This document shows, piece by piece, positions 7,252 to 35,403 of a DNA stretch of 51,890 nucleotides. Every line of letters begins with the position of its first letter. Position 1 is the stretch's first letter. This DNA is from a virus (lineage: Duplodnaviria; Caudoviricetes), in the IMG/VR virus record IMGVR_UViG_3300032397_000018, positions 1 through 51,890 of that record; one strand, written 5' to 3'. The notes under the pieces were generated by a model. It was not told the origin of the DNA, searched no databases, and worked only from the letters and a program-made list of their open reading frames with translations. A program made the translations under genes and the position numbers.

Positions 7252-7302
7252 TCTGGCGTGCGACAGTTTTACTACTCTTTTTGAATTTTTTAGGAGATCA
7301 CA

Positions 7303-8679: not shown

Positions 8680-8685
8680 TTTAGT

Positions 8686-8759
8686 GGGCCAGACGTGGCC
8701 CTTGTAGCGCGACGCCTGGCCCTTTGGCCCTCGCCAGATCAGAGGGTTGAAGGGCCAGG
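8686..8759 (+). promoter_or_regulatory. Double stem-loop after the capsid gene (stabiliser, processing site or weak terminator)
   Basis: GGGCCA/TGGCCC (8686-8701) and an 18-bp stem with G-U pairs (8715-8759). Confidence 0.6.
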
Positions 8760-8777
8760 TTATTTCTGGGAGAAAAA

Positions 8778-9116
8778 ATGCCACGATATATCGAATACGA
8801 GGCTCTGCAATCCCTGGAGATCGGGCATCTTCAAGGTCGTCCAAAACTAAATCGTGGGGATCGCATTATCGTCTCCGTATCCTTCGCTGAAAATGTAATT
8901 TCCACATTTTATTTTGGATTGCTCATGCAGAAAAAAGAGCATGTTCTTGCCGCTGCATTGCCTGGTAATTTATTCATTAAACGAAAAGATTTCACAATTG
9001 TCCCAAATGAGTCTCAATCGCCTACACCGCAACAGGAATTAGCTCCACCGCTTCCGCGAGTGCGTAACCGTAGCATGGCCGATAAAGCTACGCGCAAGAC
9101 CAAGGGGTGTCCATGA
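8778..9116 (+). CDS. Hypothetical head-associated protein
   Basis: GGGAG RBS; sits between capsid and connector genes; ATGA overlap downstream. Confidence 0.65.
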   Translation: MPRYIEYEALQSLEIGHLQGRPKLNRGDRIIVSVSFAENVISTFYFGLLMQKKEHVLAAALPGNLFIKRKDFTIVPNESQSPTPQQELAPPLPRVRNRSMADKATRKTKGCP

Positions 9117-9712
9117 GCCTTTGCACGCTTCAAGAGATCAAGGATTGGCTCAAAGTCACTGACAGCAGTCAAGACGCGATCTTGACGACTGTTCAATTGT
9201 CTGTGGAGCAATCCATCAAAAACTACTGTGAAACGGATTTCTCTGCGCGAGAGATCACCAATGAGGTGCTTGATGGTGCGGGAAACGATGTCATCGTGCC
9301 ACGATATTGGCCAATCCTTGTCGTAGACGAGCTGCGCTTTTATATAAAATTGAACAGCACAGCAGGGAGCGTGGTTAGTTCCGAGGATTACCAAGTGGGA
9401 GAGACTGCCATTTACCTGGGTAATGGCCTACTCACGCCCAAAGGACGCGGTATTGTCGGTCTGGCTTACCATGCTGGTTATGCCGCAGTTCCTGCTGACA
9501 TCCAACTGGCTGTGCAAATGGGTGTCGAGGCTTACATGGCACGTAGACAACGTAAGAGCATTGGCGTGTCCAGTCGAGGCAAGGAAGGCGAGAGCGAGTC
9601 ATTTACCTCTGCGTGGGATAAGAAGTCTGGTTTGCCTCTTGAAGTGGTCTCAATGCTTGGCGCGTATCGTCCGATGGAATTCCCGTTGGGTACCGCCACG
9701 CGAGGACAATGA
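9113..9712 (+). CDS. Head-tail connector (gp6/gp15-like adaptor)
   Basis: LCTLQEIKDWLK, IKNYC, WPI, YHAGYAAVPADIQLAV motifs. Confidence 0.85.
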   Translation: MSLCTLQEIKDWLKVTDSSQDAILTTVQLSVEQSIKNYCETDFSAREITNEVLDGAGNDVIVPRYWPILVVDELRFYIKLNSTAGSVVSSEDYQVGETAIYLGNGLLTPKGRGIVGLAYHAGYAAVPADIQLAVQMGVEAYMARRQRKSIGVSSRGKEGESESFTSAWDKKSGLPLEVVSMLGAYRPMEFPLGTATRGQ

Positions 9713-10524
9713 TGCCAACATTGCGTGACATCAGCGAGATGAGTGCCTGGGTCCGTCAGATCCCTGACCGGATCGAGAAAGGTGCTGCTAAAGGCGTGAT
9801 CAAAGCCACGACAGAAGCTGAACGCATATCTAAGCAGATGGCCAGGATACAGTTCACCGGTCGCCGTGGTTATCGTAAAACCGGCAATCTCATGAATGCG
9901 ATCAAGGCGCAATATGAGATGGGCCAGCCAAACGCCAGTATCCATGGCAGGCCATTGCTGCAGGGTTACATCGTCGTCCGTGGGCAGAAAGGCAAGTACC
10001 CTGGCACCAAACCCTATGGTCGTGTCCACGAGTTTGGCAAGCCTTCTCAGACCGATCCTGAACCGATTAGACCTCGTAGGGCTAAGCACTTATGGGTGAA
10101 AAACTGGGAAGGAGATGCCAGGAAATTCAAGGATCTGACACCGACTGATTTTTTCAATCGCATGAAACAAGATCCGAGCAGTTATCGTTTGATTTATCCT
10201 AATCCAAAGATCAATAAGCAAAAGATTCCAATAGCTTGGTTCTTTGGAGAAATCAAAAAGCAGGCGAAATCAAGACGAAGCGCAACGGCCAAAACACGTA
10301 AATCCCGGATCGGAGCGGTAAAACCACATGGAAAAAATAAACGGTATGAAGGAAAGGCGGGCCCAAAAATAAAAGGTCCCCGCTGGATCCCGCTCTTTTT
10401 CTTGCGCAAGTCAGTCAAAATACCTGAGCGTCCATTTGTGCGACCAGCGGTCATGGCCGTGGTTGGCCCTAACATGAGAAGGTTTTGGTCCATTATCCAT
10501 TCTTCCATCGAACAGGAGCCCTAG
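9709..10524 (+). CDS. Neck/tail completion protein (HK97 gp10-like) with basic insertion
   Basis: KTGNLMNAI, YGRVHEFG and IPERPFVRPA motifs. Confidence 0.75.
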   Translation: MMPTLRDISEMSAWVRQIPDRIEKGAAKGVIKATTEAERISKQMARIQFTGRRGYRKTGNLMNAIKAQYEMGQPNASIHGRPLLQGYIVVRGQKGKYPGTKPYGRVHEFGKPSQTDPEPIRPRRAKHLWVKNWEGDARKFKDLTPTDFFNRMKQDPSSYRLIYPNPKINKQKIPIAWFFGEIKKQAKSRRSATAKTRKSRIGAVKPHGKNKRYEGKAGPKIKGPRWIPLFFLRKSVKIPERPFVRPAVMAVVGPNMRRFWSIIHSSIEQEP

Positions 10525-11010: not shown

Positions 11011-11391
11011 ATGAAGTCGTTTTTTTTCACTGTTATTTTTGCCGTCAGCACCTTGGCTTTCGATGCCAATGCGCAGGTGTTCTTTTCTAACACTCGCGTT
11101 GGATCAGTTGTTCAGACTCACACGACCGTGGACACATCGACGACTCTCGCCATTTCCTCGTCGTCTGTAGCGGCCAATCTGTTGGCGTGGAAGTTGTGCA
11201 ATGACGCAGTGAATACTTCCACCCATCTGTACGTGGGAAAAGCCACAGACGTGGCGACTGACGGCGTACAACTTGGCAAGGGCCAATGTTTCGATTGCCC
11301 GAATTGTACCGGAGCCACGCTAAAACTGATCAAGGTCAAGGGACAAGCGGCAACCAACGGTTATTCGATCATCCAATATAAGCAGCAATAA
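11011..11391 (+). CDS. Signal-peptide-bearing small beta-sandwich protein (paralog A)
   Basis: MKSFFFTVIFAVSTLAFDANA/Q signal peptide with AxA site; C-terminal ~70 aa paralogous to the next gene. Confidence 0.75.
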   Translation: MKSFFFTVIFAVSTLAFDANAQVFFSNTRVGSVVQTHTTVDTSTTLAISSSSVAANLLAWKLCNDAVNTSTHLYVGKATDVATDGVQLGKGQCFDCPNCTGATLKLIKVKGQAATNGYSIIQYKQQ

Positions 11392-11413: not shown

Positions 11414-12157
11414 ATGATGAAATTGTTTACGTCTGTTTTGGCCATTGGGATCTTTGTTTTTAGTGGATTGGCGCACAGCCAGACCGTCATGCCTGGGACC
11501 AGGATAACCTCACAATCGTTTACAGCAGGCACGGCGGCTCCGACTGCGTATGAACAATTCGTTCAGACAGCTGGAGCTGATACCTCTAAATCCCTGCAAA
11601 ATAAGTACATTACGTTCTGTTTGCCGAATCTAGGGACGTGTTATGCGCCTTGGCTTAACGTGAACAGTGAAGGCGTGGCTCCGACTGTTGTTGGGCACAC
11701 ATTGATCGAAGTCGCTATCGCTACGGATGCGCTTGCTGGAGCTGTTGGAGACGCCTTGCAAGTCGCTATAGACGGCGTAACTGGCGTGACTTGCACCGAC
11801 AATAACGCGGGAGTGGTCACGTGCATTATGGATGCGAAAGGGCCAGCGACCAATGCTGCCGCTGGAAACACTGGGTGGGCAGCTCCGACTGTGACTCAGG
11901 GATTGCTCTCGACATATGCGATCTCTGCCGGTTCGATCCTGACTAATGTCATGGGATGGCGCATCTGTAATGCTTCTGCGAATGCCAGTACGTGGCTCGC
12001 TGTTGGTAAGAGCACTGATCCTGAGACTGACGGTGTGCGGATTGCTCAGGGTGTCTGTCTTGATTGTCCTAGTTGTTCCCGCGACACGCTTGGTCTGACC
12101 AAAGTCAGTTCACAGGCCGGCAGCAACGCTTATACCGTGATCCAGTTCAAGCAATAA
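11414..12157 (+). CDS. Signal-peptide-bearing beta-sandwich protein with inserted domain (paralog B)
   Basis: MMKLFTSVLAIGIFVFSGLAHS/Q signal peptide; GGAGG RBS; shared WxxCN...VGK.TD..TDGV....G.C.DCP.C...IQxKQ. Confidence 0.75.
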   Translation: MMKLFTSVLAIGIFVFSGLAHSQTVMPGTRITSQSFTAGTAAPTAYEQFVQTAGADTSKSLQNKYITFCLPNLGTCYAPWLNVNSEGVAPTVVGHTLIEVAIATDALAGAVGDALQVAIDGVTGVTCTDNNAGVVTCIMDAKGPATNAAAGNTGWAAPTVTQGLLSTYAISAGSILTNVMGWRICNASANASTWLAVGKSTDPETDGVRIAQGVCLDCPSCSRDTLGLTKVSSQAGSNAYTVIQFKQ

Positions 12158-12190: not shown

Positions 12191-13786
12191 ATGGCCAAGC
12201 GCCGATCCAGAGTCGATTTCAAAGCCATTTATGAAGGCGATAAGCAGGGCTATAACGTTGGCCTCGACTGCTCGCTTTTTCTTCGCAAAGAAGTCACTGC
12301 GCGTGTGTTTCAGGTCCCTCGCGTAGGGACAGCAGGAACGAGTACCAGTGCCTCGACACCAAGCACCGATATTTCCGCAGGAACCGACACATCGTTTAAA
12401 ATCGTCGTGGACAGCATGACTGTGGCTGTGACTGTGACGTTGGTTGTGACTGGTCTTACCTCTGGAGCGTTGATTGCTGCTGCCCTTGAGACCAAGATCA
12501 ATGACGCATTGATCGCAGCCAGTCGTGATGAGCGTGTGACCGTGACGTATGGGACCACGTATGTGATCACCAGCCAAGGCAGTGGGACATCCAGCAAGGT
12601 GGTCGTGACCGATGCCACGTCTAATAATGTGGCTGACGATCTCAAGATAGGCGTGGCCAATCTGGGCGTCGAAACGGTAGGAACCAACGATCAAGATTTC
12701 TTGCTCCATACCACGGGTGGCGCGTCGTTCAATCAACCGATCGAAAGCAACGCTCACCGCAGTGGACGGTTCCATAGTGGCGTCATCAAGCAGAAAAAAG
12801 TTGCTGAATTTGACTTTGACACCTACATCAATATGTCGGGTTCTGCTGGATCCAGCCTTGATACGCCAGTCAAATTGTTGTGGCAGCAGCTTCTGGGAAC
12901 CGAAGAATTGCCAGGAACGACAATCGTCTACAAACAAGGACTGCCCAATTTCACGTTCTCCCTGGTTCGTGTCAGCACGATCTTTGCTGAATATTACACG
13001 GGAGGCTACGTGCGCTCAGGCACGCTCACAGCAGACGGTGCTGCGCCAGCGACGATGAAATGGGCAGGCAAGGCCAGTAAGGCGGTCGTGGCGGGGATCA
13101 GCAAGATCTCTACACCAGTTAGCGGTGTGGCTCTTATCCCATTGACGAGCGGCGAAGAATTGCGCTTCGAGGCTGGCGCTCCTGTTATGACGCTCAATGC
13201 GGATGGCCGTACTATTCTCGATGGTTTCGATGGATCTTTGACTGTGTTGAGCAGAGATGAGACTGGACACACGATCACGTTGTCGTCTGTCGTGACCATC
13301 CCTGCCAGTGGGTTTGTCGTGTACTGGCATCCTGGCGCTTTGGGTACCACGGCGAAAAACGCGATCTTTACGGATCTCGTTGGTTCATTCAAGTTGCGTT
13401 CGGCGGGATCTGCTGTGGACACCAGTAATTTGTCGTTGGAAATTGCCAATGATCATAACGACCTGGACACTTATTTCGGCAAAGATGCGAATGCCGGGTT
13501 TGTGGCTGGCAATCGTTGCACGATGAAACTGAGTGTGACTGCTGATTTGAGCAACGAGAACTTTGGTGAGATTGTGAAGTTGCGTGACTTCAGCGGTCTC
13601 GATCCCGTGTTCCTCTTGGGGGATCCGACAACTGGTCGTGCAATGCGAATCAGTGCGACCAAATGGATTCCATCAGTACCGACGATTGAAGTCCCTGAGA
13701 ACGGGACAACGCCTGTCACGCTGGAGGGAAACCTTTTTGAGTCCACTCCTGGAGCAAAAGATCCTGTCGTGGTATCGTTTGAATAA
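12191..13786 (+). CDS. Major tail tube protein with two inserted domains
   Basis: AGGAG RBS; followed by a terminator, chaperone and tape measure gene; tube-like core interrupted by Thr/Val-rich insertions. Confidence 0.75.
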   Translation: MAKRRSRVDFKAIYEGDKQGYNVGLDCSLFLRKEVTARVFQVPRVGTAGTSTSASTPSTDISAGTDTSFKIVVDSMTVAVTVTLVVTGLTSGALIAAALETKINDALIAASRDERVTVTYGTTYVITSQGSGTSSKVVVTDATSNNVADDLKIGVANLGVETVGTNDQDFLLHTTGGASFNQPIESNAHRSGRFHSGVIKQKKVAEFDFDTYINMSGSAGSSLDTPVKLLWQQLLGTEELPGTTIVYKQGLPNFTFSLVRVSTIFAEYYTGGYVRSGTLTADGAAPATMKWAGKASKAVVAGISKISTPVSGVALIPLTSGEELRFEAGAPVMTLNADGRTILDGFDGSLTVLSRDETGHTITLSSVVTIPASGFVVYWHPGALGTTAKNAIFTDLVGSFKLRSAGSAVDTSNLSLEIANDHNDLDTYFGKDANAGFVAGNRCTMKLSVTADLSNENFGEIVKLRDFSGLDPVFLLGDPTTGRAMRISATKWIPSVPTIEVPENGTTPVTLEGNLFESTPGAKDPVVVSFE

Positions 13787-13823
13787 CCCCTGACAGGTTG
13801 AGCATCACTTTCTCCTTTAGAAG

Positions 13824-13854
13824 CCTCATCAAAATTTTTGATGAGGTTTTTTTT
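13824..13854 (+). terminator. Rho-independent terminator
   Basis: CCTCATCAAAA-T-TTTTGATGAGG inverted repeat followed by T8. Confidence 0.85.
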
Positions 13855-13907
13855 ATTTGTGTGGTACGTTTTTGCTGACACGATTTACCACAAATAGGGA
13901 TAAAACG

Positions 13908-14396
13908 ATGGCAATCAAGGGAAATCAAATAGGGAATCGACATAATGCCGTGTGCATGATTTCAAAGATTGATGACGCGATTGACTGGCAAGTAAGCGAT
14001 GCTGATGCCTATGCCAAAACACTGGATGAGAAGTATCTCATCTTGCTTTCTGGGAAAGAGCCCACTCGATTTCTCTGCAATTTTGATCTGGATGCGAAAA
14101 GCAACAGCGAGATTGAAGATGCCATGATTGCTGGCGTAACAGAGAATGGAACGATGAAGCCTGGGATCGGATCGTATAATCTGGCCGTAGTGCGCCACGT
14201 CCTGAAGGATATCAAAAACCCTGTCAGTTTGCCCGTGGAGGAACACCTGCTTTTTAAGCGCACAGCTGATGGCAAAGTATCGGACGAAACGCTTGACCAG
14301 CTTGCTCGATTGGGAATAATCACAGAAATTTCTGCTGCTTTCTCAAGCATGACCAAAGGCAGCGTGTTGCGTGATCGTCAATCCGCAAAAAACTAA
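13908..14396 (+). CDS. Tail assembly chaperone (gpG-like)
   Basis: Between tube and tape measure genes; ends GCA AAA AAC TAA, containing slippery heptamer A AAA AAC. Confidence 0.8.
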   Translation: MAIKGNQIGNRHNAVCMISKIDDAIDWQVSDADAYAKTLDEKYLILLSGKEPTRFLCNFDLDAKSNSEIEDAMIAGVTENGTMKPGIGSYNLAVVRHVLKDIKNPVSLPVEEHLLFKRTADGKVSDETLDQLARLGIITEISAAFSSMTKGSVLRDRQSAKN

Positions 14397-14836
14397 TTTG
14401 CGCTCTGGTTGATCTTTCTTTTGCGAATCGCAGAGCGCTCAAAAATTTCACCTGTGCCAATTGTCCTCCATCCAGGATCGCACAACGCAAATGTGAGGAT
14501 CCTGGTTTTGAAAACATCAAGCGTCCAATTCGAATTGACGAGTCCAGCCTCGACTATCGATTTTGCCCAGGGAAGGCTACAAAATACCCTGAAATTGCCG
14601 AATTATTCATGCAATGCTCTATCGCTCGGTCAACGGGTATAATGCCCAGAGACGGCGGTTTGGATCGACAAGATGCAGTCTTTCCAGACGCCTTGTATGT
14701 GTTCCTGGAGCGATGGACAGCGCGAACTTACGCCATGATATGGCATGATGTTGGTGAATTCACGAGCAAGGTTCTGGCCGCAGTGTTTGGCAAAAAAGGT
14801 GGAAGCTCTACCGGATCTCCACCAATCGAGAGGTAA
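14390..14836 (+). CDS. -1 frameshift extension of the tail chaperone (gpT-like part of the G-T fusion)
   Basis: The -1 frame is open from 14390 (KLICALVDLSF...) through the listed ORF 14609-14836, including MPRDGGLDRQD. Confidence 0.8.
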   Translation, partial: KLICALVDLSFANRRALKNFTCANCPPSRIAQRKCEDPGFENIKRPIRIDESSLDYRFCPGKATKYPEIAELFMQCSIARSTGIMPRDGGLDRQDAVFPDALYVFLERWTARTYAMIWHDVGEFTSKVLAAVFGKKGGSSTGSPPIER

Positions 14837-14839
14837 ACC

Positions 14840-17800
14840 ATGGCAGTTAGTTCTTCCGCTGATTTTTTTGTAACACTAGGCGTGCAAGACAACTTCACTC
14901 CTGCTATGCAACAGGCTGTAAATACTGCCGAACAAGTCGTCAGTTCAATGGGTCGTCTGAGTCTTAATATCATCACCATGAATCAGGCTCTTGAGTTGGC
15001 TCAAAAAGCATGGTCGGCGTTAGGTAAGATCGTCGAAATGGTTGGCATCCATGAATATGCTGAGGCTGAAAAAAACGTACTCAAGCTAAGTTTCGCTCTC
15101 GCCAATCAAGGTCAAGATGTCGAGGCTGGAGTAAAACATTTTGAACACCTTACGAATGAGATTCAGCGCAACAGCACGGCCAGTGAAGACACATTGATGA
15201 AGTTGGCCGCTCAGTCTAAAGCGCTGGGATTAACCACAGACATGACAGACAAACTGTTGCGTGGGAGCGTGGACCTGGCTGCGGTCATGGATACAGACGT
15301 CGATCAAGCTTTTCAGCAGTTGCTGTCATCGTTGGCGGGCAATGCTCGTGGGATAGGCCGGTACATCAAAGCTGTGAGGGACATGACTCCTGAGATGCTC
15401 CAGGCAGGTGGAGCCGTTGAATATGTAGCCAACAAAATGAAAGGGTTCGCGGAGAGAGAAGCCGGAACAATGCTTGGGCGCACAGAGCAAATAAAGAATG
15501 GTTTTAAACAATTAAAACAATCTCTTGGAGAGTTGTCTGTTACAGCATTTACGATCCCTGGCCTAAATGCTGGTCCTAGTCCGATAGCCAAAACTATTTT
15601 TGATATCGTCGAGGAACTGAAAAGTCTGATCCCAGTTGTTGTCGAGGCACGCAACAAAGTTTTGGCTTTTTTTGGCGGTTTGAAAATTGCGTTTATCGAT
15701 GTCGATTGGACAGGAATCTTTGGCTCGTTTACACGGGCTGTTTTGCAAGCTGCCGCTGCTGTTGCGGTCTTTGCCGTGGCGAGTAATTTGAGTCTGATTA
15801 TTGCGTCGATTCCGTTGATCGAGATTGGCTTTGCGCTGATTACAGCTCGCCTATGGGCTATGGCCAAAGCGTTCACGGCAGCCTCTGCTTCGATAGCCGT
15901 TACGGCTGTCAAATTTACTGCAGTTGCACTTGGAGCCGTGACAACGGCCATAGCGATTGATTTGATCATCCGCAATATCGACAAATTGGGAAAACTTTTT
16001 GCTACCTCATTTTTGCACATTATCGGTGGCGCGGTAATTGTCGTGCGTGAGTTGGTAAATCTGATCGGCATGATCCCTGGGATGGGAGGACCAACAGAAG
16101 CGGCTTTGGGAAAAATAGATGGTCTTTTGGAATCCATGGCTGTGTCTGCGGGAGAGTTCAGCGAAGGTCTCGATCTTGGTTTTGCAGGAAAGGTGTTTAC
16201 CGAAGGCCAGAAGTTCATGCGCAATCTGGCTGAAGGCACTGATCTTACAGCAAAAAAGCTGAAAGAAGCAGAAGCTAAAGCAAAAGATTTTGGAGTTGTC
16301 TTAAAAGCGTCAGTAGGCACAGCAGTGAAACTCACTGACGATTTGAAAAAGCAGCTCGATGAGATCCTGAAACGCTACAAAGACAATCAGCAAGCCATTT
16401 CCGAGGCTGGTCTAACCGAAGGGCAGGCCATCATTCTGCGAGCAACTGCTGCTCGTGAAGCGATCGTGCAGTTTGAGCGAGAACTGAAAATCCGTGGCAT
16501 GTTGACTACGGAAATTAAAAATCAACTGGCTGCTGCACGCGAGGCAGAAGGCGTTCGCGGCAATATCGAGTTGGACAAACTGCGTGTCAAAATGATGACC
16601 GAGGCAGTTACCAAAGCCGATGAATTACAGCAGTCTCTCGACAAGCAGCGGATGACTGAGAGAGAACTGGTCGCAGCTGATCTAAAGCGCACAACGGCAG
16701 CAATCGATCTCCAGCGGTTCAATGCTCTGCAAAACGAGACGTGGACTCCTGAAATGGAGCGTGTGTTACAGGGCTCTGCAAAGGCTGCCAAAGAGTTGGC
16801 AGCGATCAAGATGTCCGAACTACCGATGACGATGCGGGATGCCTTTAAAGAGATCTCCAAGGGCTTTAAAGCGGTAGGTACTGGTTCGGTATGGTCTGGA
16901 CTCTGGCAGATGGGAAAAGGAGTTGCTAGCGCGATTGGCACTGCGATCATGATTGCTGCCGATTACGTTGGGGAAGTCTTGGAAGGCGCGTTCTCCGTAG
17001 CCAAGGGATTATTTGGAGGAGGATACGTTGATGTGGTCAGCGACATTATCGATGCTGTCGGCAGCATTCCACAAATGCTCACGACGGCCATGACACGGTT
17101 GGGGAGTGTGATCGATAAAATCGTGTCTCAATTTCCTGTCATGGTGCAACAGCTCGTTGCCGCTTTGCCAGGGATTGTCGATAAGATCGTGGCCGCTTTT
17201 CCGCAACTCATAGCTACTATTGCGGATTCATTACCAAAAATTGCTCAAACCATAGGTCAACAATTTCCGCGAATCATTGCCGCTCTGATGGATGCGATTC
17301 CAAAACTGGTGGAAATGTTGCCGTCAATCATTGCTCCCTTGCTCGATGGATTGGTCAATGCTGTAGGCATTATCATTGACAAATTACCTGCGATCCTGAC
17401 GAGCATTTTCCAGACGTTACCAAAATTAGCTGTCGAGATTTTCCGTGCCATTCCTTCCCTCGTGGCGAATCTCTTGGAAAACATAGATGACGTTATTTTT
17501 GCTTTTGTCGATGGATTGATTGCCTCTGAAGGAGAAATCGTCGGTGGGTTTATCGATCAGTTTTTTATGCAAGGTGGTGCTGAACGCCTTATTGGTTCTA
17601 TCATTCGATCGATTCCAAAAATAGTGTTCGCTCTTGTACGCGGTATCGCATCAGGCTTGAGCAAGGCTTTAAAAGGCATAATGGGTGGAGGTTTTGGCGC
17701 AATCAAGGCACCAGCAGCGTTGATTGATTTGCCCAAAAAATTAGAAGGAGCCTTTAAAAAACTCGGCCAGGTCGTGAGTGCAGATACCAGCAAGTTGTTT

Positions 17801-23861: not shown

Positions 23862-24308
23862 ATGCTCATGACCACGCCAAAAAAAGTTTGGGGATTGAAC
23901 ACCGATAAATCGCTCTATCGTCTGCGCTGGCGTTTTGATTTTTCAGACGATAAGCGATCTCGATTCGGGATCTGGAATAACAGCGGTGCTCTTGCTACGG
24001 ACGGTGCGTGGTGTGTTAACAAGACCAATTTGCTTCGGGCAGCAATCGAGGCTGAAGACACGCGCACGTGGGAGACAGTTGCACTCTGGGAATGTGATGG
24101 CTCAGAATTCGTCAATTTCGAGTGGATGGCTGGTGCTCCAATGGGTTCGCCTTTCTCGTCGGGCACGGTAACGCTCAGATCAACGATCGTGGGAATGGCA
24201 GGTATCAGTAGGGATTTTAGATGTGAGGTCTTCGTTGATGGCTCGTCTAGGCGACGGGAACGCAGCGAACATGACAAGAAAAACATTTTAGCTGCGTGGA
24301 AACTTTGA
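23862..24308 (+). CDS. Hypothetical protein
   Basis: AAGGA RBS; fills the gap in the operon. Confidence 0.6.
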   Translation: MLMTTPKKVWGLNTDKSLYRLRWRFDFSDDKRSRFGIWNNSGALATDGAWCVNKTNLLRAAIEAEDTRTWETVALWECDGSEFVNFEWMAGAPMGSPFSSGTVTLRSTIVGMAGISRDFRCEVFVDGSSRRRERSEHDKKNILAAWKL

Positions 24309-24316
24309 GGTTTTAA

Positions 24317-26035
24317 ATGACAATAATTTCACGATTGAAATTAGATCATCCAATACTCGGTACCTCTGCTGGCGCTGGTTTACATTCTAGCCTCGAAAGC
24401 ATCTATCTAAAAATCGGTGATTCTCTTTCCAGCCGATTCTTTACGATCGAAAACCTCAATGACTCTACTTCTGTTGATTGTGACCATAATTTCAACACGT
24501 TAATTGGCAATCTACGTTACGACCTCTATCTGTGGGACACGGTCACTGGGGAAATAACACTCCTCACAGAAGACACGACTCCCACGCTGGCGTCTTTTGG
24601 CATCATCGCCAAAGTCGGTGACACCAAAAAACAGTTCACTGTGACCAATAATTCTGGTGCTCAACGCGATCTAGTCCTCATGGTCTTCAACGATCCCCTG
24701 GAGCTGAATGAGCTGACCGATGTGGATACCGCAGGGAAAGAAGATGGTCAGGCGATGGTCTATGACCTCGCTACGAAGCTCTGGAAGCCGGGAGCCTCTG
24801 GAGATGCCTCCTTTAAGCTGCAATCGATCACAGATCCCAATGCGATCCTCAAGGGGGGATATTTGATGCTCCCTGATGGCAGGGAGCTTGCGACTTACGA
24901 CGGGACTGGTGGAGCATCGACTGATTTCGGCAAAGACATGACGGTAAATCTGGACACCATCTTGGGCGGAAGTCCAGCCAATGCCACGTCCTATTTTTTG
25001 TACATCGATCTGAACACGCTTGGAGCAGTAACGGTTTGCTCAGACAATGGTCGCAGACTTTACGCTGTTACTCAGGCCAATCTGGTCCTGTCTGTGACCG
25101 CTCCAGAGGTCGCGAACCTCAATCGCTATGTTGCGCGTGGGGTGATTCGATCGGCGACAACAGGGACGGTATGGTCGGGTACAGGATCAACATTTGCGAC
25201 GATGGCGTCGTTGCGCCATGATCCGCTCGGATCGTTTTTTTCTTACATCGAGGAAAAACTGGACAGTGCCACGTCTGCTGCGGTCAAAACTGTCACACAT
25301 GGATTGAGTGGTAGGCCGAACCTTCCTCCCACTTTGGAGTTTGTGACATTTTTGACGGGCAAACGGACTCCGCTTTCCGCTGAAACGTATTGCACCGACA
25401 ACAACGCGACCACAACGGTTTTCGATTTTTCTTCTCTGACGTTTGCCTCCAGTGATCGTGTCGAGATTGGTCTCTATTACTGTCCCAGGGTGGCCAATGG
25501 ATTCGTCTCCAGCTCGCAGCAATACGAGAGTCCATGGTTTGATTCGGCGCTCCCCGCAAGCGCAACGCACGGTCAGGCGGACAAATTCGCGATCAGAGCG
25601 GTGTCCTACCTCGAATGGGATGTGACAGCGGGAACAATCAAGCAGCGGGAATGTACGCTTGGTTTAGTCACATACTGGAACGACACCACGATCTATTTTA
25701 ACGGCACTGGCATTACGCCATCGAGCACGCTGAAATATAAAATCGTGGCTGGTGGTTCTCCTCTGCCGCAGGCAGCAGCTCCGATCATGGGCAGCATGTT
25801 CGAGTTTACGGCTCTTGGGCAATTGGCATCTGGGAGCACGGCTTACGTCTGCTCGAAGATGTTTGGTGACAGCCCGACAGAGATTGCCGTGGTTCAGAAG
25901 AAGACCAATGGCTGGCAGCCTGTCCCCATCGTTGACTCGATTTGGGTCACTGCTGATGGCAACAAGTATCTGCGCGGGGACATCGATGTTCTGGTGCCGT
26001 CTGTGTCTGAACCTGTGAGAATCACAGTAAGATAA
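24317..26035 (+). CDS. Tail fibre-like protein
   Basis: LNELTDV...DGQAMVYD...LWKP fibre motif; repeated HN/HG beta modules (CDHNFN, VTHGLS, ATHGQ). Confidence 0.7.
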   Translation: MTIISRLKLDHPILGTSAGAGLHSSLESIYLKIGDSLSSRFFTIENLNDSTSVDCDHNFNTLIGNLRYDLYLWDTVTGEITLLTEDTTPTLASFGIIAKVGDTKKQFTVTNNSGAQRDLVLMVFNDPLELNELTDVDTAGKEDGQAMVYDLATKLWKPGASGDASFKLQSITDPNAILKGGYLMLPDGRELATYDGTGGASTDFGKDMTVNLDTILGGSPANATSYFLYIDLNTLGAVTVCSDNGRRLYAVTQANLVLSVTAPEVANLNRYVARGVIRSATTGTVWSGTGSTFATMASLRHDPLGSFFSYIEEKLDSATSAAVKTVTHGLSGRPNLPPTLEFVTFLTGKRTPLSAETYCTDNNATTTVFDFSSLTFASSDRVEIGLYYCPRVANGFVSSSQQYESPWFDSALPASATHGQADKFAIRAVSYLEWDVTAGTIKQRECTLGLVTYWNDTTIYFNGTGITPSSTLKYKIVAGGSPLPQAAAPIMGSMFEFTALGQLASGSTAYVCSKMFGDSPTEIAVVQKKTNGWQPVPIVDSIWVTADGNKYLRGDIDVLVPSVSEPVRITVR

Positions 26036-26045
26036 AGGAGAATCC

Positions 26046-27284
26046 ATGCGCTTCATTTTTGCTTTTTTGGTTTTGTTTACGGCTGGCCAGTCATGGGCCA
26101 CATCCGATGATTGGGTGGTGCCAGCCCGTGGTAATGGTGGATCTGTCATCATTGCACCCAAAGACGCCACAGGCACTGCTCAAACGCTCATGACTTTTGA
26201 TCCTGTGAATGGCGTGAGTGGGAGCGGGTTTGCGGGGAAGAATTATATCATCAACGGCGATATGACGTTTTTCCAACGTGGGACGGTGTTCACTTCTATC
26301 GTTACTGCTCAATATTCCGTAGACCGTTACCGCTATGATAAAAGCGGTACAATGGTTCATGAGGTGGGACTATCTAATGATGTTCCTACTTTGGCTCAGA
26401 GTAAGTGGGCATCAACAAACAGTTTTAACATGACGTTAACAACGCCACAAGCCTCAATTGGTTCTTCTGACTGGTTGATGTTATCCCACAGAGTTGAGGG
26501 GTATAACTGGGCAGCTCTCTACGGAAAGACGTTTACTCTATCGTTTTGGGTTAAGGCTACGCAGATTGGGTTGTACAACGTAGCATTAAGGTCTGGTTCG
26601 GTGGACGCAACTTACATAGCACAATTCCCTGTGAATGTGACAGACACTTGGGAAAAGAAGATCATTACAGTCCCTGCTCCTACAATTGGAACGTGGGATC
26701 TTTCTACTGGTATTGGATTGATGATCGGATGGCATTTGGTGTGTGGTTCTAGTCTTCAAGCTCCTTCGGTTAGCACATGGGTGGCTGGCAGCTACCACTG
26801 TGGTGCTGGCCAAGTGAATGGGGTGCAGAGTGGGGCCACTAATTTCAAATTAGCACAAGTCATGCTCAACGAAGGTTCCGTCGCCGCTCCCTTCCAGTTG
26901 GCAGGGGGGACGATTGGTGGGGAACAACAACTTGTTCAGCGGTATACTTATAAAGTGTCTTATACAGGAACTGCCAATCCACTGGCTGTAGGGTTCGCCA
27001 TTTCAACAACTGCTGCGAGTGTTATGGTTCCTTTTCCTGTTACTATGAGGGTTACTCCTACATCTTTGATGACTTCTGCTGCCGCTGCTGATTACAGGTT
27101 ATATGATTTTTCTTCAGCAACTGCCGTTACGTCTCTTCCAAGTCTTAGCGGCAATGGAAGTAGTCCTACTATGGGAAATGTTTCTCTCATTTGTACCGCT
27201 TGTGGGTTGACAGCTTTTCGCCCATATCAGCTAATTCCTAATACTAGTCCAGTAGCGTTTTTACTCTTTGACGCCGAACTCTGA
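26046..27284 (+). CDS. Tail-fibre/carbohydrate-binding-like protein with N-terminal signal peptide
   Basis: MRFIFAFLVLFTAGQSWA/T; KNYIINGDMTFFQRG, DRY, TLSFWVKA, EQQLVQRY and FPVTMRVTP motifs; AGGAG RBS. Confidence 0.8.
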   Translation: MRFIFAFLVLFTAGQSWATSDDWVVPARGNGGSVIIAPKDATGTAQTLMTFDPVNGVSGSGFAGKNYIINGDMTFFQRGTVFTSIVTAQYSVDRYRYDKSGTMVHEVGLSNDVPTLAQSKWASTNSFNMTLTTPQASIGSSDWLMLSHRVEGYNWAALYGKTFTLSFWVKATQIGLYNVALRSGSVDATYIAQFPVNVTDTWEKKIITVPAPTIGTWDLSTGIGLMIGWHLVCGSSLQAPSVSTWVAGSYHCGAGQVNGVQSGATNFKLAQVMLNEGSVAAPFQLAGGTIGGEQQLVQRYTYKVSYTGTANPLAVGFAISTTAASVMVPFPVTMRVTPTSLMTSAAAADYRLYDFSSATAVTSLPSLSGNGSSPTMGNVSLICTACGLTAFRPYQLIPNTSPVAFLLFDAEL

Positions 27285-27300
27285 AAAGGAGCCTCTCAAT

Positions 27301-28146
27301 ATGAAACGTCTAATCCCTCTAATCCTAGCCCTCTTCGCCAGCACTGCGTTTGGCGTGGTCATCAAAGAATCGAAGTCGAATACACCGATTGATTTCTACA
27401 CTGCGCCTAGTGGGGTGGTGACGAAGCAGGCATCGCTAACTAGCACAGGCACCTGGACTTTAACCAATCCAACTTTTACGACTAATACGGCAGACGGAGC
27501 AGACAGTGCTGCGGTGTCTCTTGCTGGAGGTGGTTCAGGTAACTCAACGAGAGGTGCAACTTTATATCTAGGTGGCAACGAGAACGCTAACGCTGGAAAG
27601 ACGTTTTTCAGTGCGGGAGACGCTGCTGGTGGGTCCGCTACAGCGTTTAGCTGGTACAGCAGCTCAACAGTTGGCGGTGCTAGCACAGAGAAGATGGCTT
27701 TGACTGGAGATGGTGTTCTGACTGTCAACGGTTATTCTGTAGCTACAGAAAGCAGCGGAACTTTTACTGTTACATGGAAGGATAGTGTAGCAACACCTAT
27801 GGCCATAGATGTAGTTAGATACGCTAAATCTGGAAATGTTGTTACCTTGAGGTTCCAAGCCGGAATTTGGGGATCTGCCCCAGCTGTCGGCGTATTCACC
27901 ATAGCTGCGGGGACAATACCAGCAGCATTACGTCCCAGTGGTACGGGATTTGTACTTCTTATGGTATTTGCTAGAAACGATTCTGGTTCAAACAGCACAA
28001 CTGCCAGCAATTTATATATTTATGGAGCTACGCATGCAAATGCTGGTGGGGGATATCTCGCTTTCGGAGCGAATGACGCCAATTTTGGGACTAATACTTA
28101 CGTCGGTATGTTGGGCGGTGCCTCTGTTTCTTATGTGGTGAATTAA
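27301..28146 (+). CDS. Fibre/adhesin-like protein with N-terminal signal peptide
   Basis: MKRLIPLILALFASTAFG/V; EKMALTGDG fibre motif; C-terminal RYAKSGNVVTL...IPAALRP module; AGGAG RBS. Confidence 0.75.
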   Translation: MKRLIPLILALFASTAFGVVIKESKSNTPIDFYTAPSGVVTKQASLTSTGTWTLTNPTFTTNTADGADSAAVSLAGGGSGNSTRGATLYLGGNENANAGKTFFSAGDAAGGSATAFSWYSSSTVGGASTEKMALTGDGVLTVNGYSVATESSGTFTVTWKDSVATPMAIDVVRYAKSGNVVTLRFQAGIWGSAPAVGVFTIAAGTIPAALRPSGTGFVLLMVFARNDSGSNSTTASNLYIYGATHANAGGGYLAFGANDANFGTNTYVGMLGGASVSYVVN

Positions 28147-28147
28147 C

Positions 28148-28513
28148 ATGAAACACTTACTCCTCCTCATCTTGGCCCTTTCCCTAGGCTCCTGCAAAAC
28201 CTGCCCCCTCAACGAGCCCATCACTGAGGTTATCGTCACTGGCCTTGCTGGCTACGGTGAGTGTGGTGGCTATGACGAGATGAAGTCAGACGTGAGTAAT
28301 CTCGTCGCCAAAGTCGGCATCTGCAAAAAAGATCTCGATGTGCAGCCCTGCCTAAAATTCGTCCCAGACGGTGTTTGCACCGCCAAATGCATCGCGTGCT
28401 CGGTGGTCGGTAAATCCATCGCAGGATACGCCAAATGGCCGTCTGCATGGCTCTGCAAAAAGCCCGTGATCAAACCTGAGATGATCGACACAATTTGCCA
28501 GGAGCTGGATTGA
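28148..28513 (+). CDS. Cys-rich lipoprotein
   Basis: MKHLLLLILALSLGS/C lipobox; 10 Cys in 121 aa. Confidence 0.75.
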   Translation: MKHLLLLILALSLGSCKTCPLNEPITEVIVTGLAGYGECGGYDEMKSDVSNLVAKVGICKKDLDVQPCLKFVPDGVCTAKCIACSVVGKSIAGYAKWPSAWLCKKPVIKPEMIDTICQELD

Positions 28514-28515
28514 CC

Positions 28516-28863
28516 ATGCTGAACGACGAGCAGGAGAAGGCCATCCGGTTCTCTGGACTGGTGAAGGTCAAGATGGGATGGCTTCCCGCCAAAAAATACG
28601 AATTCAACGACAAGTACAACGTGGCACGAGAGCGCCTGCTGTCTGCCAACGTGAAGCAGGGCCAGGTGATCGACTTGAATGGGAAGGGCTCTATCGAAAT
28701 CCTCACCAGGACCGAAACGAGTGCCACGGCACGTCTCAGCTCTGCCCAGTATAATGGGACAGTAGGGATGGACTTGACTCACGAGTTGCTCGACGCCACT
28801 TACGTCAACGCCCGTGTAACCTACGCAGGGGTCGATGTTACGATCCAGGCGGAACGAGTCTAA
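28516..28863 (+). CDS. Hypothetical protein
   Basis: ATG just after the previous stop; TAATG coupling to the next gene. Confidence 0.6.
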   Translation: MLNDEQEKAIRFSGLVKVKMGWLPAKKYEFNDKYNVARERLLSANVKQGQVIDLNGKGSIEILTRTETSATARLSSAQYNGTVGMDLTHELLDATYVNARVTYAGVDVTIQAERV

Positions 28864-29132
28864 TGTCTGACATCACGATCACAGCAGCTATAGCAGTGTG
28901 GGGAGCGTGGGAGGCTGCCAAAGTGTTCGGTATTCCGAAAGCAATAATAGACAAGTTTATTTTTCATAAAAATGACGAGTGGAAAAAAGACGATCACGAC
29001 GTGATTCTCAGACATATTGTATCGTGTGAAAACTGTCAGGAACACCAAGAAAAACAGATTGTTCTGCTTGATCGAATTGTTGAGAATACGTCAGCCATCA
29101 AAATTATTATGGAAGTACAATCGAGAAAATGA
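28863..29132 (+). CDS. Small membrane-anchored helical protein (possible holin or antiholin)
   Basis: N-terminal hydrophobic stretch, helical C-terminus; coupled on both sides. Confidence 0.45.
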   Translation: MSDITITAAIAVWGAWEAAKVFGIPKAIIDKFIFHKNDEWKKDDHDVILRHIVSCENCQEHQEKQIVLLDRIVENTSAIKIIMEVQSRK

Positions 29133-29482
29133 CGAGCAAATCAGCACGCGACATTCATCGAGCCTACCTATTTGAAGATCATGATATGAGCGTGTCTTTG
29201 GCGAGTGGTTCAGCCGACTTCAAAGAGATGTCGATGGGCAGTGTGCAGGCATGGTGGACTGGCAACGATGCCACAGACGGCTCGATCGAAGTCGAGGCCA
29301 GTGACGACAATATCCATTGGGACGTGATCCTTGGTAGTTATCGTGCAGTCGATAATCCCCGCCTGACGTGGCTTTGGGATCTAGGTGTGGTGGGATATCG
29401 CTATGTTCGGATCGTGTATGCGCATGGGAGCATAACGACGGGCATTTTGAACGCATTTGCGATTGGGAAGGCTCATCGATGA
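29129..29482 (+). CDS. Small beta-sandwich virion-type protein
   Basis: VEASDDNIHW and YRYVRIVY motifs. Confidence 0.65.
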   Translation: MTSKSARDIHRAYLFEDHDMSVSLASGSADFKEMSMGSVQAWWTGNDATDGSIEVEASDDNIHWDVILGSYRAVDNPRLTWLWDLGVVGYRYVRIVYAHGSITTGILNAFAIGKAHR

Positions 29483-33896: not shown

Positions 33897-34049
33897 ATGA
33901 AAAGCAGCACATGGATCGTAATTTTGACTGTCGTGGTTCTTTTTGGGTGTGGAAGTAAGGATGTTTCCATCCAAAAAATCGAACAAATTCTGACGTATAT
34001 CAGAAATTCAGGAAATCAAATTATCCTTGAAGTGGAGACGGTGCCGTGA
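33897..34049 (+). CDS. Small lipoprotein
   Basis: MKSSTWIVILTVVVLFG/C lipobox; GTGA overlap with the endolysin. Confidence 0.6.
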   Translation: MKSSTWIVILTVVVLFGCGSKDVSIQKIEQILTYIRNSGNQIILEVETVP

Positions 34050-34552
34050 CCCGCACATATGCTGCTTTCAAAGCTGCTTTGGGACAGCGAGAGAGCAGCA
34101 ACAATTATCAGGCCAAAAACCGCTATGGGTACCTCGGGAGATATCAGTTTGGCAAGGTACGATTGTGTGATCTCGGATTGTGTATGCAAATGACTCGGAT
34201 GAGGATCGAATGGCTACACGGCTTGACTGAGCAGGCTTTTTTGGATTGTCCGATGTTGCAGGACTTGGTGTTCGATCTCCACGTTGCCAAATTGCGTGCT
34301 CATGTGCATTGGAAGTTTACGCTAGAAGAAAAAAGTCTAACGATGAGTGGAGCGATTGCCGTGATGCATTTGGTTGGTCCTGGCGGTCTAGTGGGACTGC
34401 TTAAGGGCATCAATTTTACAGACGGCAATGGAGTGCAAGCGTCTGAATATTTACGGTTATTTAGAGGATACCAAATACCAGACACTCATCCAGGTCAGAT
34501 CTCTCTAAATGCTGCCATTGCCATGGCTTTAAAAAAGGAGATTCACTCATGA
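34046..34552 (+). CDS. Endolysin, lysozyme-like fold
   Basis: LGQRESSNNY..KN..GYLGRYQF catalytic region; HLVGPGG. Confidence 0.8.
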   Translation: MTRTYAAFKAALGQRESSNNYQAKNRYGYLGRYQFGKVRLCDLGLCMQMTRMRIEWLHGLTEQAFLDCPMLQDLVFDLHVAKLRAHVHWKFTLEEKSLTMSGAIAVMHLVGPGGLVGLLKGINFTDGNGVQASEYLRLFRGYQIPDTHPGQISLNAAIAMALKKEIHS

Positions 34553-34887
34553 ACAAATTTATTTTTTTTGCATTGCTGTTCTGTTCGTGTTCAGGAGGAT
34601 CTGAGATTAGCGTTGTCGATATCTTGTCAATCGTGTCTAGCTTGCCGTTCAACGCTTATTGGAAGGAAATCGCTGTTGCTGCGTTGACCTTACTCGTAGT
34701 CTGCCGTTGGTTGGCAGAGCTGCTATTTATCTTGTCACGTGTCCTGCATAATGACGAGATGGGTTTTGTGGCGTTTGGCCTCTATAAGAGCATCAGAGCG
34801 GTCGCGCAAGTGCTAGGGTACGTAGGCATGGGTATTCCAAAAGAACTGCTCAGTGAACGCATTGAAGCAGCCATGAAAACTAAATAA
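34549..34887 (+). CDS. Membrane protein (holin- or lipoprotein-like) of the lysis cassette
   Basis: Hydrophobic N-terminus with LFCSC and further hydrophobic helices; ATGA overlap with the endolysin. Confidence 0.55.
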   Translation: MNKFIFFALLFCSCSGGSEISVVDILSIVSSLPFNAYWKEIAVAALTLLVVCRWLAELLFILSRVLHNDEMGFVAFGLYKSIRAVAQVLGYVGMGIPKELLSERIEAAMKTK

Positions 34888-35403
34888 ATGTCTAATTGCA
34901 TTGAAGAAATCAGGATTCTTGGGAGTAAAGTCGAAGCACTCAGACATGAGTCCGTCGTGTCTTTTGACGAGATTAGATTTTTGATTGTTGATAGGCTGGA
35001 TCGGATCGAGGATATTCTGCGCCTACCAAGAATAACCAAGATCAGGTTTGCAACAACAATGTGTGGAATGAAATTGGAGATCACTGAGATGCAGCTGAAA
35101 GTCACGAATAAACTTCCTCTATCCTTGAAACTGATCGATAAATTTGGAAACGACGCTCGTGTGGATGGCCTCCCTCTGTGGGCACTGACTAATCCGGCCA
35201 TGGGAGTTCTCGCTGTGGCTACAGACGGCATGAGTGCCGTCTTGACACCAGCTGGTGTTCTGGGTTCATTTGCAGTTCAGGTGTCGGCAGATGCCGACAT
35301 GGGCGAAGGCGTGAAGGTCATTGTTGGAAATCTTCGAATCGATCTTTTGCCCGGTGATGCGACCGAAATCCAGATTGTTTCTGGCGAACCAATTCTGGAA
35401 TAA
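34888..35403 (+). CDS. Ig-like domain protein
   Basis: DKFGN...W...DGMSAV...VQVSADAD pattern. Confidence 0.55.
   Translation: MSNCIEEIRILGSKVEALRHESVVSFDEIRFLIVDRLDRIEDILRLPRITKIRFATTMCGMKLEITEMQLKVTNKLPLSLKLIDKFGNDARVDGLPLWALTNPAMGVLAVATDGMSAVLTPAGVLGSFAVQVSADADMGEGVKVIVGNLRIDLLPGDATEIQIVSGEPILE

Follow-up and report, generated by a model that had tools for sequence, protein, structure and literature searches.

Fiber-type proteins with predicted export signals, encoded in a cassette shared by unrelated tailed phages

Results

Two consecutive fiber-type genes begin with predicted signal peptides

The stretch of DNA analyzed here (the window) is the whole of IMG/VR virus record IMGVR_UViG_3300032397_000018, a tailed phage genome (Caudoviricetes) of 51,890 bases that is estimated to be complete. 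Its tail-fiber locus encodes, in order, a signal-less fiber (the base fiber), two proteins that begin with predicted Sec signal peptides and continue into fiber-type bodies (signal fibers A and B), and a Cys-rich lipoprotein (Table 1). The fiber genes are tightly packed within the late operon. Judged from their sequences, fibers A and B are products of real late genes for fiber-type carbohydrate-binding proteins that are probably exported via Sec, and with the base fiber and lipoprotein they form a cassette that appears to move between unrelated tailed phages.

The preliminary description of this locus had noted two consecutive genes with strong ribosome-binding sites and signal peptides, bodies built from fiber or carbohydrate-binding motifs, and a preceding fiber gene (24317-26035) without a signal. 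All of this is borne out: AAGGAG stands 5 and 9 nt before the two start codons, both N-termini are of Sec type by our own rule, the bodies carry a CBM4-like fold with a match to phrog_4492 (fiber A) and endosialidase-stalk-type repeats (fiber B), and the upstream fiber has no hydrophobic N-terminus. In both proteins, the predicted export signal stands at the place where one would look for a virion anchor. A longer fiber B open reading frame (ORF) could start at TTG 27268, which has no such ribosome-binding site, and the homologs P0122 and P0123 begin at the Met equivalent to ATG 27301.

Signal peptides were called with a rule of our own rather than with SignalP, and export and cleavage are thus predicted. 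The rule asks for a net charge that is not negative ahead of the hydrophobic region (h-region), then for 10 uncharged residues (mean hydropathy at least 1.8) starting no later than residue 16, and soon afterward for small residues at -3/-1. Fibers A and B have MR/MKR n-regions, an uncharged hydrophobic stretch of at least 10 residues (mean Kyte-Doolittle value 2.9 over 10 residues), and small residues at -3/-1, with the cut falling between SWA and T in fiber A and between AFG and V in fiber B. By this rule, both have the features of type I signals for Sec and signal peptidase I (SPase I): a basic n-region, an h-region of ~7-15 residues, and small -3/-1 residues. The rule flags 9 of the 69 plus-strand ORFs of at least 45 aa in the window. 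Seven calls are strong (the ORFs starting at 11011, 11414, 26046, and 27301 and the lipobox proteins at 28148, 33897, and 34549); the two borderline calls, at 21204 and 44571, are taken as false. The rule missed a papain-family peptidase for which another start had been chosen, and whose signal is visible from the start at 43370.

Fiber A matches phrog_4492 ('tail fiber protein') with an E-value of 2.7e-42, the match lying toward the C-terminal end of the profile (positions 772-1043 of 1096). It also matches tail-fiber genes in 65 cultured-phage records, the best being that of Puniceispirillum phage HMO-2011 (33% over residues 58-412), and its CBM4-like lectin domain is present in more than 1000 tail-fiber relatives. 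An AlphaFold2 model based on a 121-row alignment (predicted local distance difference test score, pLDDT, 82) consists of a CBM4-like jelly roll and a small C-terminal domain. The top PDB match of the lectin part in Foldseek was CBA120 tailspike 4, and CBM4, CBM22, CBM11, and CBM16 modules were also matched (1k42, CBM4-2, with a TMt of 0.69; 5w6h with an E-value of 1e-7). When the whole body of fiber A was compared with BFVD, many phage tail fibers were matched, with TMq values of up to 0.72.

Fiber B matched no Pfam, PHROG, or NCBIfam family, and its AlphaFold2 model, made without an alignment, has a pLDDT of 33.9, from which we claim no fold. An exhaustive phmmer search with fiber B found 170 proteins at E ≤0.001. 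Residues ~45-118 match a repeat of which proteins of 600-1900 aa contain as many as 10 copies. Among the four largest matches, which were scanned (P0129, P0130, P0132, and P0137), two reach the cut-off for Pfam End_tail_spike (PF12219) and two fall just under it; P0132 also has a Peptidase_S74 domain. Fiber B itself has no direct match to PF12219, so the link is an indirect one via the phmmer matches P0129, P0132, and P0137. Taken together, the tail-fiber and lectin matches of fiber A and the stalk-repeat matches of fiber B indicate that both bodies are of phage-fiber type.

Signal-like N-termini occur in 34 of 150 relatives of fiber B among the matches listed, which suggests that a signal followed by a fiber repeat is a common architecture outside the cassette. 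In five metagenomic proteins (P0143, P0165, P0199, P0228, and P0233), a signal peptide leads into a conserved start, 'YTSRYFHYNQY.DAP.PF', behind which the same stalk repeats follow; these proteins look like a separate family of exported fiber-like proteins. A similarity of the C-terminal domain of fiber B to the product of 9419-10027 in another phage locus (L102, described below) was marginal (pairwise E 0.002) and was not used.

Table 1. Features of the fiber region, with positions in the window
Feature	Coordinates	Strand	Remarks
Signal-less 'base' tail fiber, 572 aa	24317..26035	+	After tape-measure and distal tail genes; no hydrophobic N-terminus
Ribosome-binding site AAGGAG	26035..26040	+	5 nt 5' of ATG 26046; read from sequence
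Signal fiber A, 412 aa	26046..27284	+	Signal peptide, N-module A, CBM4-like lectin, small C-terminal domain
Predicted Sec/SPase I signal peptide, fiber A	26046..26099	+	Residues 1-18, cut after SWA; own rule; helix 2-13 in model
N-module A	26100..26228	+	Mature residues ~19-61; from alignments; kept in P0002, P0011, P0104, and L091 8363-9865; looser in L102 9419-10027
CBM4/CBM22-like beta-jelly-roll carbohydrate-binding domain	26238..26945	+	Residues ~65-300, pLDDT >90; from fold matches
Ribosome-binding site AAGGAG	27286..27291	+	9 nt 5' of ATG 27301; read from sequence
Signal fiber B, 281 aa	27301..28146	+	Signal peptide, N-module B, endosialidase-stalk-type repeat, C-terminal beta domain
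Predicted Sec/SPase I signal peptide, fiber B	27301..27354	+	Residues 1-18, cut after AFG; own rule; h-region variable in alignment
N-module B	27355..27450	+	Mature residues 19-50; I21 K22 E23 K25 F32 Y33 G38 G50 invariant in 8 proteins with different bodies
Stalk-type repeat	27433..27654	+	Residues ~45-118; matches repeats of large End_tail_spike/S74 fiber proteins
Cys-rich lipoprotein, 121 aa	28148..28513	+	Lipobox LGS/C; 10 Cys in mature part; homolog L091 11387-11755 (34% over 96 aa, E 1e-15)
Two small genes of unknown role, 116 and 89 aa	28516..29132	+	Inside the stretch missing in L094 between the fiber gene and the homolog of 29129-29482

Signals drift while the modules behind them are conserved

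The signal is rare in the fiber A family yet kept where it is present. Among the 120 best homologs of fiber A, query included, our rule flags 6 and leaves 114 without a signal; among 80 IMG/VR family loci it flags 1, at an internal start and thus doubtful, and 1 further locus was mis-parsed. The preliminary description had proposed a survey of homologs for retention of the hydrophobic N-terminus, and the answer divides: the closest relatives (P0002 at 90%, P0003 at 50%, P0122, and P0123) keep it, whereas most of the best family members lack it. In a FastTree phylogeny of 121 sequences, printed without support values, P0001, P0002, P0003, P0011, and P0104 make up one signal-bearing clade, in which P0002 is a 90% homolog of fiber A and P0003, P0011, and P0104 have 36-44% identity to it. 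The signal-bearing P0081 and P0123 lie on other branches of the same tree, which suggests at least three origins.

N-module A follows directly after the signal in fiber A, P0011, and P0104, the hydrophobic cores of which differ. Relative to fiber A, the signals of P0011, P0104, and the L091 protein at 8363 are alike in features but different in sequence. N-module B was found in eight proteins (fiber B, P0122, P0123, P0197, P0214, P0253, and two IMG/VR genes), with eight invariant positions. P0122 and P0123 share the first ~55 residues of fiber B at ~80% identity and then have other bodies; in P0123 the module heads a lectin body of the fiber A type. The signals of N-module B proteins vary in length and sequence, and the conserved part begins 1-3 residues past the predicted cut. 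Mean pairwise identity is 0.30-0.35 in the signal part versus 0.51-0.55 in the next 32 residues, and the same pattern of a drifting signal followed by a conserved module is seen with N-module A. Genuine signal peptides evolve in just this way, and the pattern speaks against misassigned starts and against hydrophobic N-termini that arose by chance. The conserved N-terminus and swapped C-terminal part, seen in at least eight N-module B proteins with different bodies, is the architecture of exchangeable receptor-binding proteins. A candidate resemblance of N-module B to an 'IKET..FDF' stretch near the N-terminus of the signal-less fibers upstream in L091 and L092 was rejected by hhalign (probability 0.13, E 0.44).

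The four-gene cassette recurs, in full or in part, in other phages

Two IMG/VR loci, L091 and L092, were found with a profile of N-module B; their records (157 kb and 92 kb, respectively) are both complete, with terminal repeats. In L091, four consecutive genes match the four consecutive window genes in the order signal-less fiber, signal fiber A, signal fiber B, and lipoprotein. A 598-aa signal-less protein matches the base fiber (36% over 421 aa), a 500-aa signal protein (8363-9865) matches fiber A only in its first 53 residues (53%, blastp), a second signal protein matches fiber B only in its first ~51 residues, and a 122-aa lipoprotein matches that of the window at 34%. A further signal protein of L091 (11764-13611) carries a Peptidase_S74 domain. 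The cassette of L092, a myophage, lies downstream of baseplate wedge genes and consists of a fiber homolog, three signal proteins (one with Pfam Collar at 83 bits and one with N-module B), and a lipoprotein. Classical domains of virion fibers occur in signal-bearing neighbors, with Collar at 83 and 52 bits, Peptidase_S74 at 26.6 bits (cut-off 22), and phrog_9116 'tail protein' at 1e-29. Neither the portal of the window phage nor the product of 11414 has a match in the complete L091 and L092 records, so the cassette is a unit common to otherwise unrelated phages. Across these loci, the sequences indicate that N-modules are conserved and bodies swapped.

The lipoprotein, which the preliminary description did not include, belongs to the same unit. 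Its ATG overlaps the stop codon of fiber B (TAACATG, 28146-28150) and has no clear ribosome-binding site, which suggests translational coupling to the fiber B gene. It matched no Pfam, PHROG, or NCBIfam family. The base fiber is a composite: its N-terminal ~300 aa are common to related siphophage contigs of ~50 kb, and its C-terminal part (~160-572) is shared with the cassette of the 157-kb phage. Besides L091, which shares this C-terminal part, and L092, which shares some of it, only three database proteins have it. At 572 aa, the base fiber is short compared with the 667-1011 aa of its counterparts in eight of nine relative loci where these are complete, which fits a handover of receptor binding to separate proteins.

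Two further observations concern the cassette surroundings. L091 (11142-11378) and a further locus, L101 (10201-10440), which belongs to a ~50-kb relative of the window phage, both encode a protein of 78/79 aa that has a single membrane helix at its N-terminus; the two versions are 57% identical, and each lies amid signal-bearing fiber genes. Downstream of the L092 cassette (13033-16859) are several signal or lipobox proteins and then an amidase-type endolysin; two of the proteins have CxxCH-type motifs and look like products of cellular envelope or cytochrome-like genes.

The unit is accessory among relatives of the window phage

Nine further loci were found with a base-fiber profile; with the window, L091, and L092, this gave 12 loci that were examined downstream of the fiber. 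Eight of the nine share the N-terminal ~300 residues of the base fiber and the same upstream tail genes, L102 being the exception. The fiber center (~130-300) is conserved in all loci and the C-terminal part is variable. Signal-bearing proteins without a lipobox are found downstream of the fiber in 6 of the 12 loci (the window, L091, L092, L098, L101, and L102), and only a lipobox-type protein in 3 (L093, L095, and L099). L094 has no such gene and goes straight to a homolog of 29129-29482, and 2 loci (L096 and L097) end too early to tell.

Matches to fiber families back the label 'fiber-like' for the L091, L092, and L101 proteins and for window fiber A; they give it no backing for the products of L098 10059-10601 and L102 9419-10027. 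The body encoded by L102 10046-10600 matches an internal domain of the signal-less fibers in L093 and L097. The unit is therefore accessory and variable, with domains moving between signal-less fibers and signal proteins. In L101 9361-10191, the Collar domain begins ~15 residues past the predicted cut.

L102 shares only the central part of the base fiber, and its upstream genes differ. Its main-fiber homolog (6302-9337, 1011 aa) has at the N-terminus a strongly basic stretch and then 17 hydrophobic residues, which could be a signal or a signal-anchor. This fiber gene follows contractile-tail baseplate hub/wedge genes (phrog_196, 1.6e-54; phrog_120, 1.5e-33; phrog_6, 3.9e-57) after one unassigned 210-aa gene.

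A family of lipobox proteins of 288-365 aa (28-37% mutual identity) follows the fiber in L093 (9836-10780), L095 (9833-10699), L098 (10605-11663), and L102 (10594-11691). It has no family match and is encoded just before holin-like and endolysin genes.

Predicted docking of N-module B on the base fiber

The preliminary description had suggested co-folding a mature N-terminus with the C-terminus of the upstream fiber. We modeled three copies of base fiber residues 300-572 with three copies of N-module B residues 19-62, alongside three controls. The score was 0.56 (runs 0.56, 0.55, and 0.63) versus 0.00 for the best control, a verdict of weak support for docking of N-module B on the signal-less base fiber. 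Runs agree in at least 71% of contacts, with a partner pLDDT of at least 77. As the control in which the partner was kept and the fiber replaced scored 0.00, self-association of the module does not explain the score. In calibration, 58 of 80 solved complexes and 2 of 110 mismatched pairs came up to the mark; of these, only 7 of the solved complexes did so with scores of ≤0.60, as did both mismatches. The alignments used for docking were self-made and thin (6 and 8 rows), and the 3+3 copies are unlike the calibration set.

Other genes of the window phage

Nearly all window genes are on the plus strand, in a siphophage-type order: a DNA methylase, large terminase, portal fused to a MuF-like part, and prohead protease are followed by a head-tail adaptor, neck protein, and tail terminator and then by a 1466-aa tape-measure protein and distal tail proteins. 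Farther along are a lysozyme, recombination and replication genes, a secreted papain-family peptidase, and a second methylase. There are no tRNA genes in the window, and promoter-like and terminator-like sites are no more frequent in it than in shuffled sequences. No integrase turned up among the window ORFs scanned with family libraries; the phage is apparently non-temperate, and its fiber genes are apparently expressed late.

The preliminary description had counted the genes at 11011 and 11414 with fibers A and B as four exported proteins of structural type. Their signal-like N-termini are confirmed; nothing shows that they are structural. These genes (11011-11391, 126 aa, and 11414-12157, 247 aa) are signal-bearing paralogs between the tail terminator and a 531-aa gene at 12191, and their products have in common a C-terminal domain of 82 residues (50% identity, E 7e-30) in which a C..C.DCP.C pattern is seen. 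They have no family match and no relatives among cultured phages.

Positions 33897-35403 form a probable lysis block that encodes a 50-aa lipobox protein, a signal-less lysozyme-like protein (phrog_27932, E 8e-17), a 112-aa protein with a lipobox-like N-terminus and an internal membrane helix, and a 171-aa protein. A lysozyme without a signal beside membrane protein and lipoprotein genes fits holin-type lysis, in which the inner membrane is opened before the outer one fails. Amid the replication genes, 43370-44509 encodes a papain-family cysteine peptidase (Pfam Peptidase_C1, E 1.9e-53). Its N-terminus is signal-like, and it also has a linker rich in Pro, Thr, and Glu and an additional domain at the C-terminus; phages do not usually encode secreted proteases. 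Two N6/N4 DNA methyltransferases are encoded at 1539-2315 and 44571-45887, the second with a ParB-like N-terminal part (phrog_8071 and phrog_620).

Wider searches added little. The fiber region (24000-29000) has no nucleotide match among 50,697 cultured-phage records, and blastn and tblastn against cultured phages gave nothing useful for the fiber region, fiber B, the base fiber, or 11414. IMG/VR scans with single proteins and an N-module A profile found no useful close relatives. A metagenome scan found three uninformative loci, among which the contig of the 90% homolog P0002 was absent, and a genome scan found six loci, of which the one inspected (L085, from a Cytophagales metagenome-assembled genome) has a homolog without a signal. 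Matches in the ESM Atlas were unnamed viral clusters only, and 13 cassette proteins had no match in NCBIfam.

Discussion

Comparison with known systems

In the full-text literature, with most subscription journals outside it, we found no published report of signal-bearing fibers in tailed phages. To our knowledge, all textbook accounts have tailed-phage virions, fibers included, built in the cytoplasm. The closest functional parallel is the mosaic adhesive trimer (MAT) fibers of Bdellovibrio bacteriovorus. In 21 such fibers, a signal peptide precedes a conserved N-domain, the tips are of S74 or other types, and the protein is located at the surface (PMC10769870). The two systems are alike in signal peptide, conserved N-terminal part, fiber-like body, and swappable tips, with S74 in some MATs as in L091 11764-13611. 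They differ in that MAT genes are bacterial and chromosomal, with a beta-rich N-domain of ~130 aa and products on the predator surface. The cassette genes instead lie in the tail-fiber locus of complete phage records, encode a conserved mature N-terminal part of ~30-45 aa, and in the window give proteins of only 281 and 412 aa. The MAT parallel prompts the guess that the host of the window phage may be Bdellovibrio-like.

In architecture, the closest parallel is adaptor-docked tailspike sets such as TSP1-4 of CBA120. CBA120 and G7C have branched or adaptor-docked sets of receptor-binding proteins. As in the cassette, several genes of receptor-binding type stand in a row and short conserved N-terminal modules, which in the cassette are putative docking modules, head exchangeable bodies, with a neighboring fiber as the presumed platform. 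Unlike fibers A and B, the tailspikes of those sets lack signal peptides and are put together in the cytoplasm, and docking in the cassette has weak in-silico support.

Exported proteins are also known from this part of phage genomes. T5 Llp and the Cor lipoproteins of T1/phi80-type phages are encoded beside receptor-binding genes. Lambda Lom is an exported outer-membrane protein encoded between tail-tip and side-fiber genes (PMC12309495). Lom, Llp, and Cor resemble the cassette products in being signal or lipobox proteins encoded beside tail-tip or fiber genes and accessory in distribution. They act in the envelope, and none has a tail-fiber or lectin body. The lipoprotein at 28148-28513 is, like Llp and Cor, a lipobox protein encoded beside a receptor-binding gene, and matches no described family in Pfam, PHROG, or NCBIfam.

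Filamentous-phage pIII binds the receptor as part of the virion; it is made with a Sec signal peptide and joins the particle outside the cytoplasm. It differs in having a C-terminal inner-membrane helix and in extrusion without lysis; fibers A and B have no C-terminal hydrophobic stretch, and the window phage has a terminase, portal, tape measure, and lysozyme. In sequence and fold, fiber A is like the phrog_4492/CenC-like (CBM4) tail-fiber unit of marine, freshwater, and soil phages (HMO-2011, cyanophages, and ACP17). Elsewhere this unit ends longer signal-less fibers (1104 aa in P-SCSP2; RP13 ORF38 has a plain N-terminus; two of the 65 records were inspected), whereas fiber A is a 412-aa protein in which the unit comes after a signal and not at the end of a longer signal-less fiber.

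Possible roles of the exported fibers

The interpretation we lean toward, with somewhat less than even confidence, is that fibers A and B are exported, exchangeable receptor-binding fibers that join the virion when lysis merges the compartments. In favor of this are the fiber domains of signal-bearing proteins (Collar and S74 among them), the gene position, conserved N-termini with swapped bodies, the short base fiber, the main-fiber homolog of L102, and the weakly supported docking of N-module B. The genes themselves, their signal features, the fiber and lectin bodies, module conservation, and synteny are established from the sequences; export, cleavage, docking, and timing we infer. The signal peptide would send unfolded chains to the periplasm, where SPase I would cut them and the fibers would fold and oligomerize, perhaps aided by the lipoprotein, whose gene is in the usual position of a fiber chaperone. 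The short conserved mature N-termini would then dock on the C-terminal domain of the tail-borne signal-less fiber once holin lesions or lysis join cytoplasm and periplasm. More specifically, the lineage-crossing cassette could be a system for two-compartment assembly in which the fibers are Sec-exported, cut, and folded in the periplasm, the Cys-rich lipoprotein acts as chaperone or holder, and the fibers snap onto the cytoplasmically built tail fiber in the seconds between holin triggering and outer-membrane rupture. We put this fuller scheme forward as a tentative one that is a little harder to credit than virion incorporation as such.

Several points weigh against incorporation into the virion. 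In literature that mostly excludes subscription journals, no Sec-exported virion protein of a tailed phage was found, which sets a strong prior against it. The co-occurrence of fiber C-terminal part, N-modules, and lipoprotein rests on two or three loci and could be explained by linkage, because the conserved fiber center (~130-300) could serve as a recombination site. The unit is accessory, being absent from L094 and reduced to a lipoprotein-type gene in L093, L095, and L099. L098, L101, and L102 have related fiber C-terminal parts, yet their signal proteins share no N-modules by blastp. The ~15 residues between cut and Collar domain in L101 leave no room for an anchor, and the small membrane proteins and lipoproteins in the cassettes point to a role in the envelope. 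A docking pass of the kind obtained here is more often wrong than right unless docking was likely beforehand, and export and cleavage are predicted by our own rule only.

Only slightly less plausible than virion incorporation is that the fibers are exported and never enter the virion. They would then be accessory, moron-like lectins resident in the envelope, forming a periplasmic or outer-membrane-associated complex with the lipoprotein and, in relatives, with small membrane proteins. They might mask or intercept receptor glycans (for superinfection exclusion or protection of progeny from debris) or act as MAT-type adhesins. This would require no new assembly route and would account for the Sec-type signals with a lipobox neighbor, for the patchy distribution among close relatives, for cassettes rich in lipoproteins and small membrane proteins (for example, the 78/79-aa protein of L091 and L101), and for the Collar protein of L101 that lacks room for an anchor. 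The 34 of 150 listed fiber B relatives with signal-like N-termini fit as well. T5 Llp and the Cor lipoproteins offer precedents, as do Bdellovibrio MAT fibers (PMC10769870) and lambda Lom (PMC12309495). However, it is the N-module and not the lectin body that is conserved between phages, and a receptor masker should keep the body that matches its receptor. Apparently late expression in an apparently non-temperate phage would leave little time for a function in the envelope, Sec export alone does not reach the cell surface of a diderm, the main-fiber homolog of L102 is itself signal-bearing, and docking has weak support (0.56 versus 0.00). The preliminary description had offered both possibilities, namely a two-compartment assembly route and surface adhesins or receptor decoys. 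The present data do not separate them: weak docking and L102 speak for the former, accessory distribution and the MAT precedent for the latter.

Two other explanations require that the N-termini do not act as signals. The known fibers of tailed phages all assemble in the cytoplasm, and fibers A and B could be ordinary side fibers in which the hydrophobic helix and module make up an unusual virion anchor, or in which the helix is removed in some other way. Modularity with a conserved N-terminus and variable C-terminus, gene position, and weak docking support all fit, and export of the two fibers is so far a prediction from sequence. Nevertheless, we consider this unlikely, as all features of a cleavable Sec signal are kept while the sequence drifts faster than the module, whereas a packed helix would be expected to be conserved. 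Moreover, h-regions this hydrophobic would be expected to be captured by the signal recognition particle (SRP)/Sec or to aggregate, no segment of this kind is present in 114 of the 120 best family members or in 78 of the 80 IMG/VR loci, and lipobox proteins occur in the same cassettes. Wrong starts, or chance hydrophobic N-termini on normal fiber genes, are very improbable. The alternative TTG start of fiber B at 27268 and the two probable false positives among 69 ORFs leave some opening for such an artifact, but AAGGAG is properly spaced before both ATGs, homologs on other contigs begin at the same Met and have the same architecture, and the hydrophobic N-terminus is seen again in the syntenic genes of independent phages.

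Significance

The observation itself is real, non-random, and conserved, and it extends well beyond the window: fiber-type lectins with export signals are encoded in the fiber locus of at least four different phage backbones, and their conserved N-termini and swapped C-terminal parts are typical of host-range determinants. Their function is split between two readings of similar weight, virion incorporation being slightly ahead of an envelope role, and one of the two would be a new assembly route. On both readings, a label of 'tail fiber' from automatic annotation conceals how exported fibers differ from ordinary ones. If the exported fibers are virion parts, assembly can span two compartments and lysis timing becomes part of morphogenesis; prediction, engineering, and expression of host-range modules would change, and periplasmic expression would be needed. 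If they are not virion parts, they are a hitherto undescribed class of exported, fiber-derived phage lectins that might underlie exclusion, the masking of debris, or the adhesion of infected cells and that would link phage fibers to MAT-type surface fibers.

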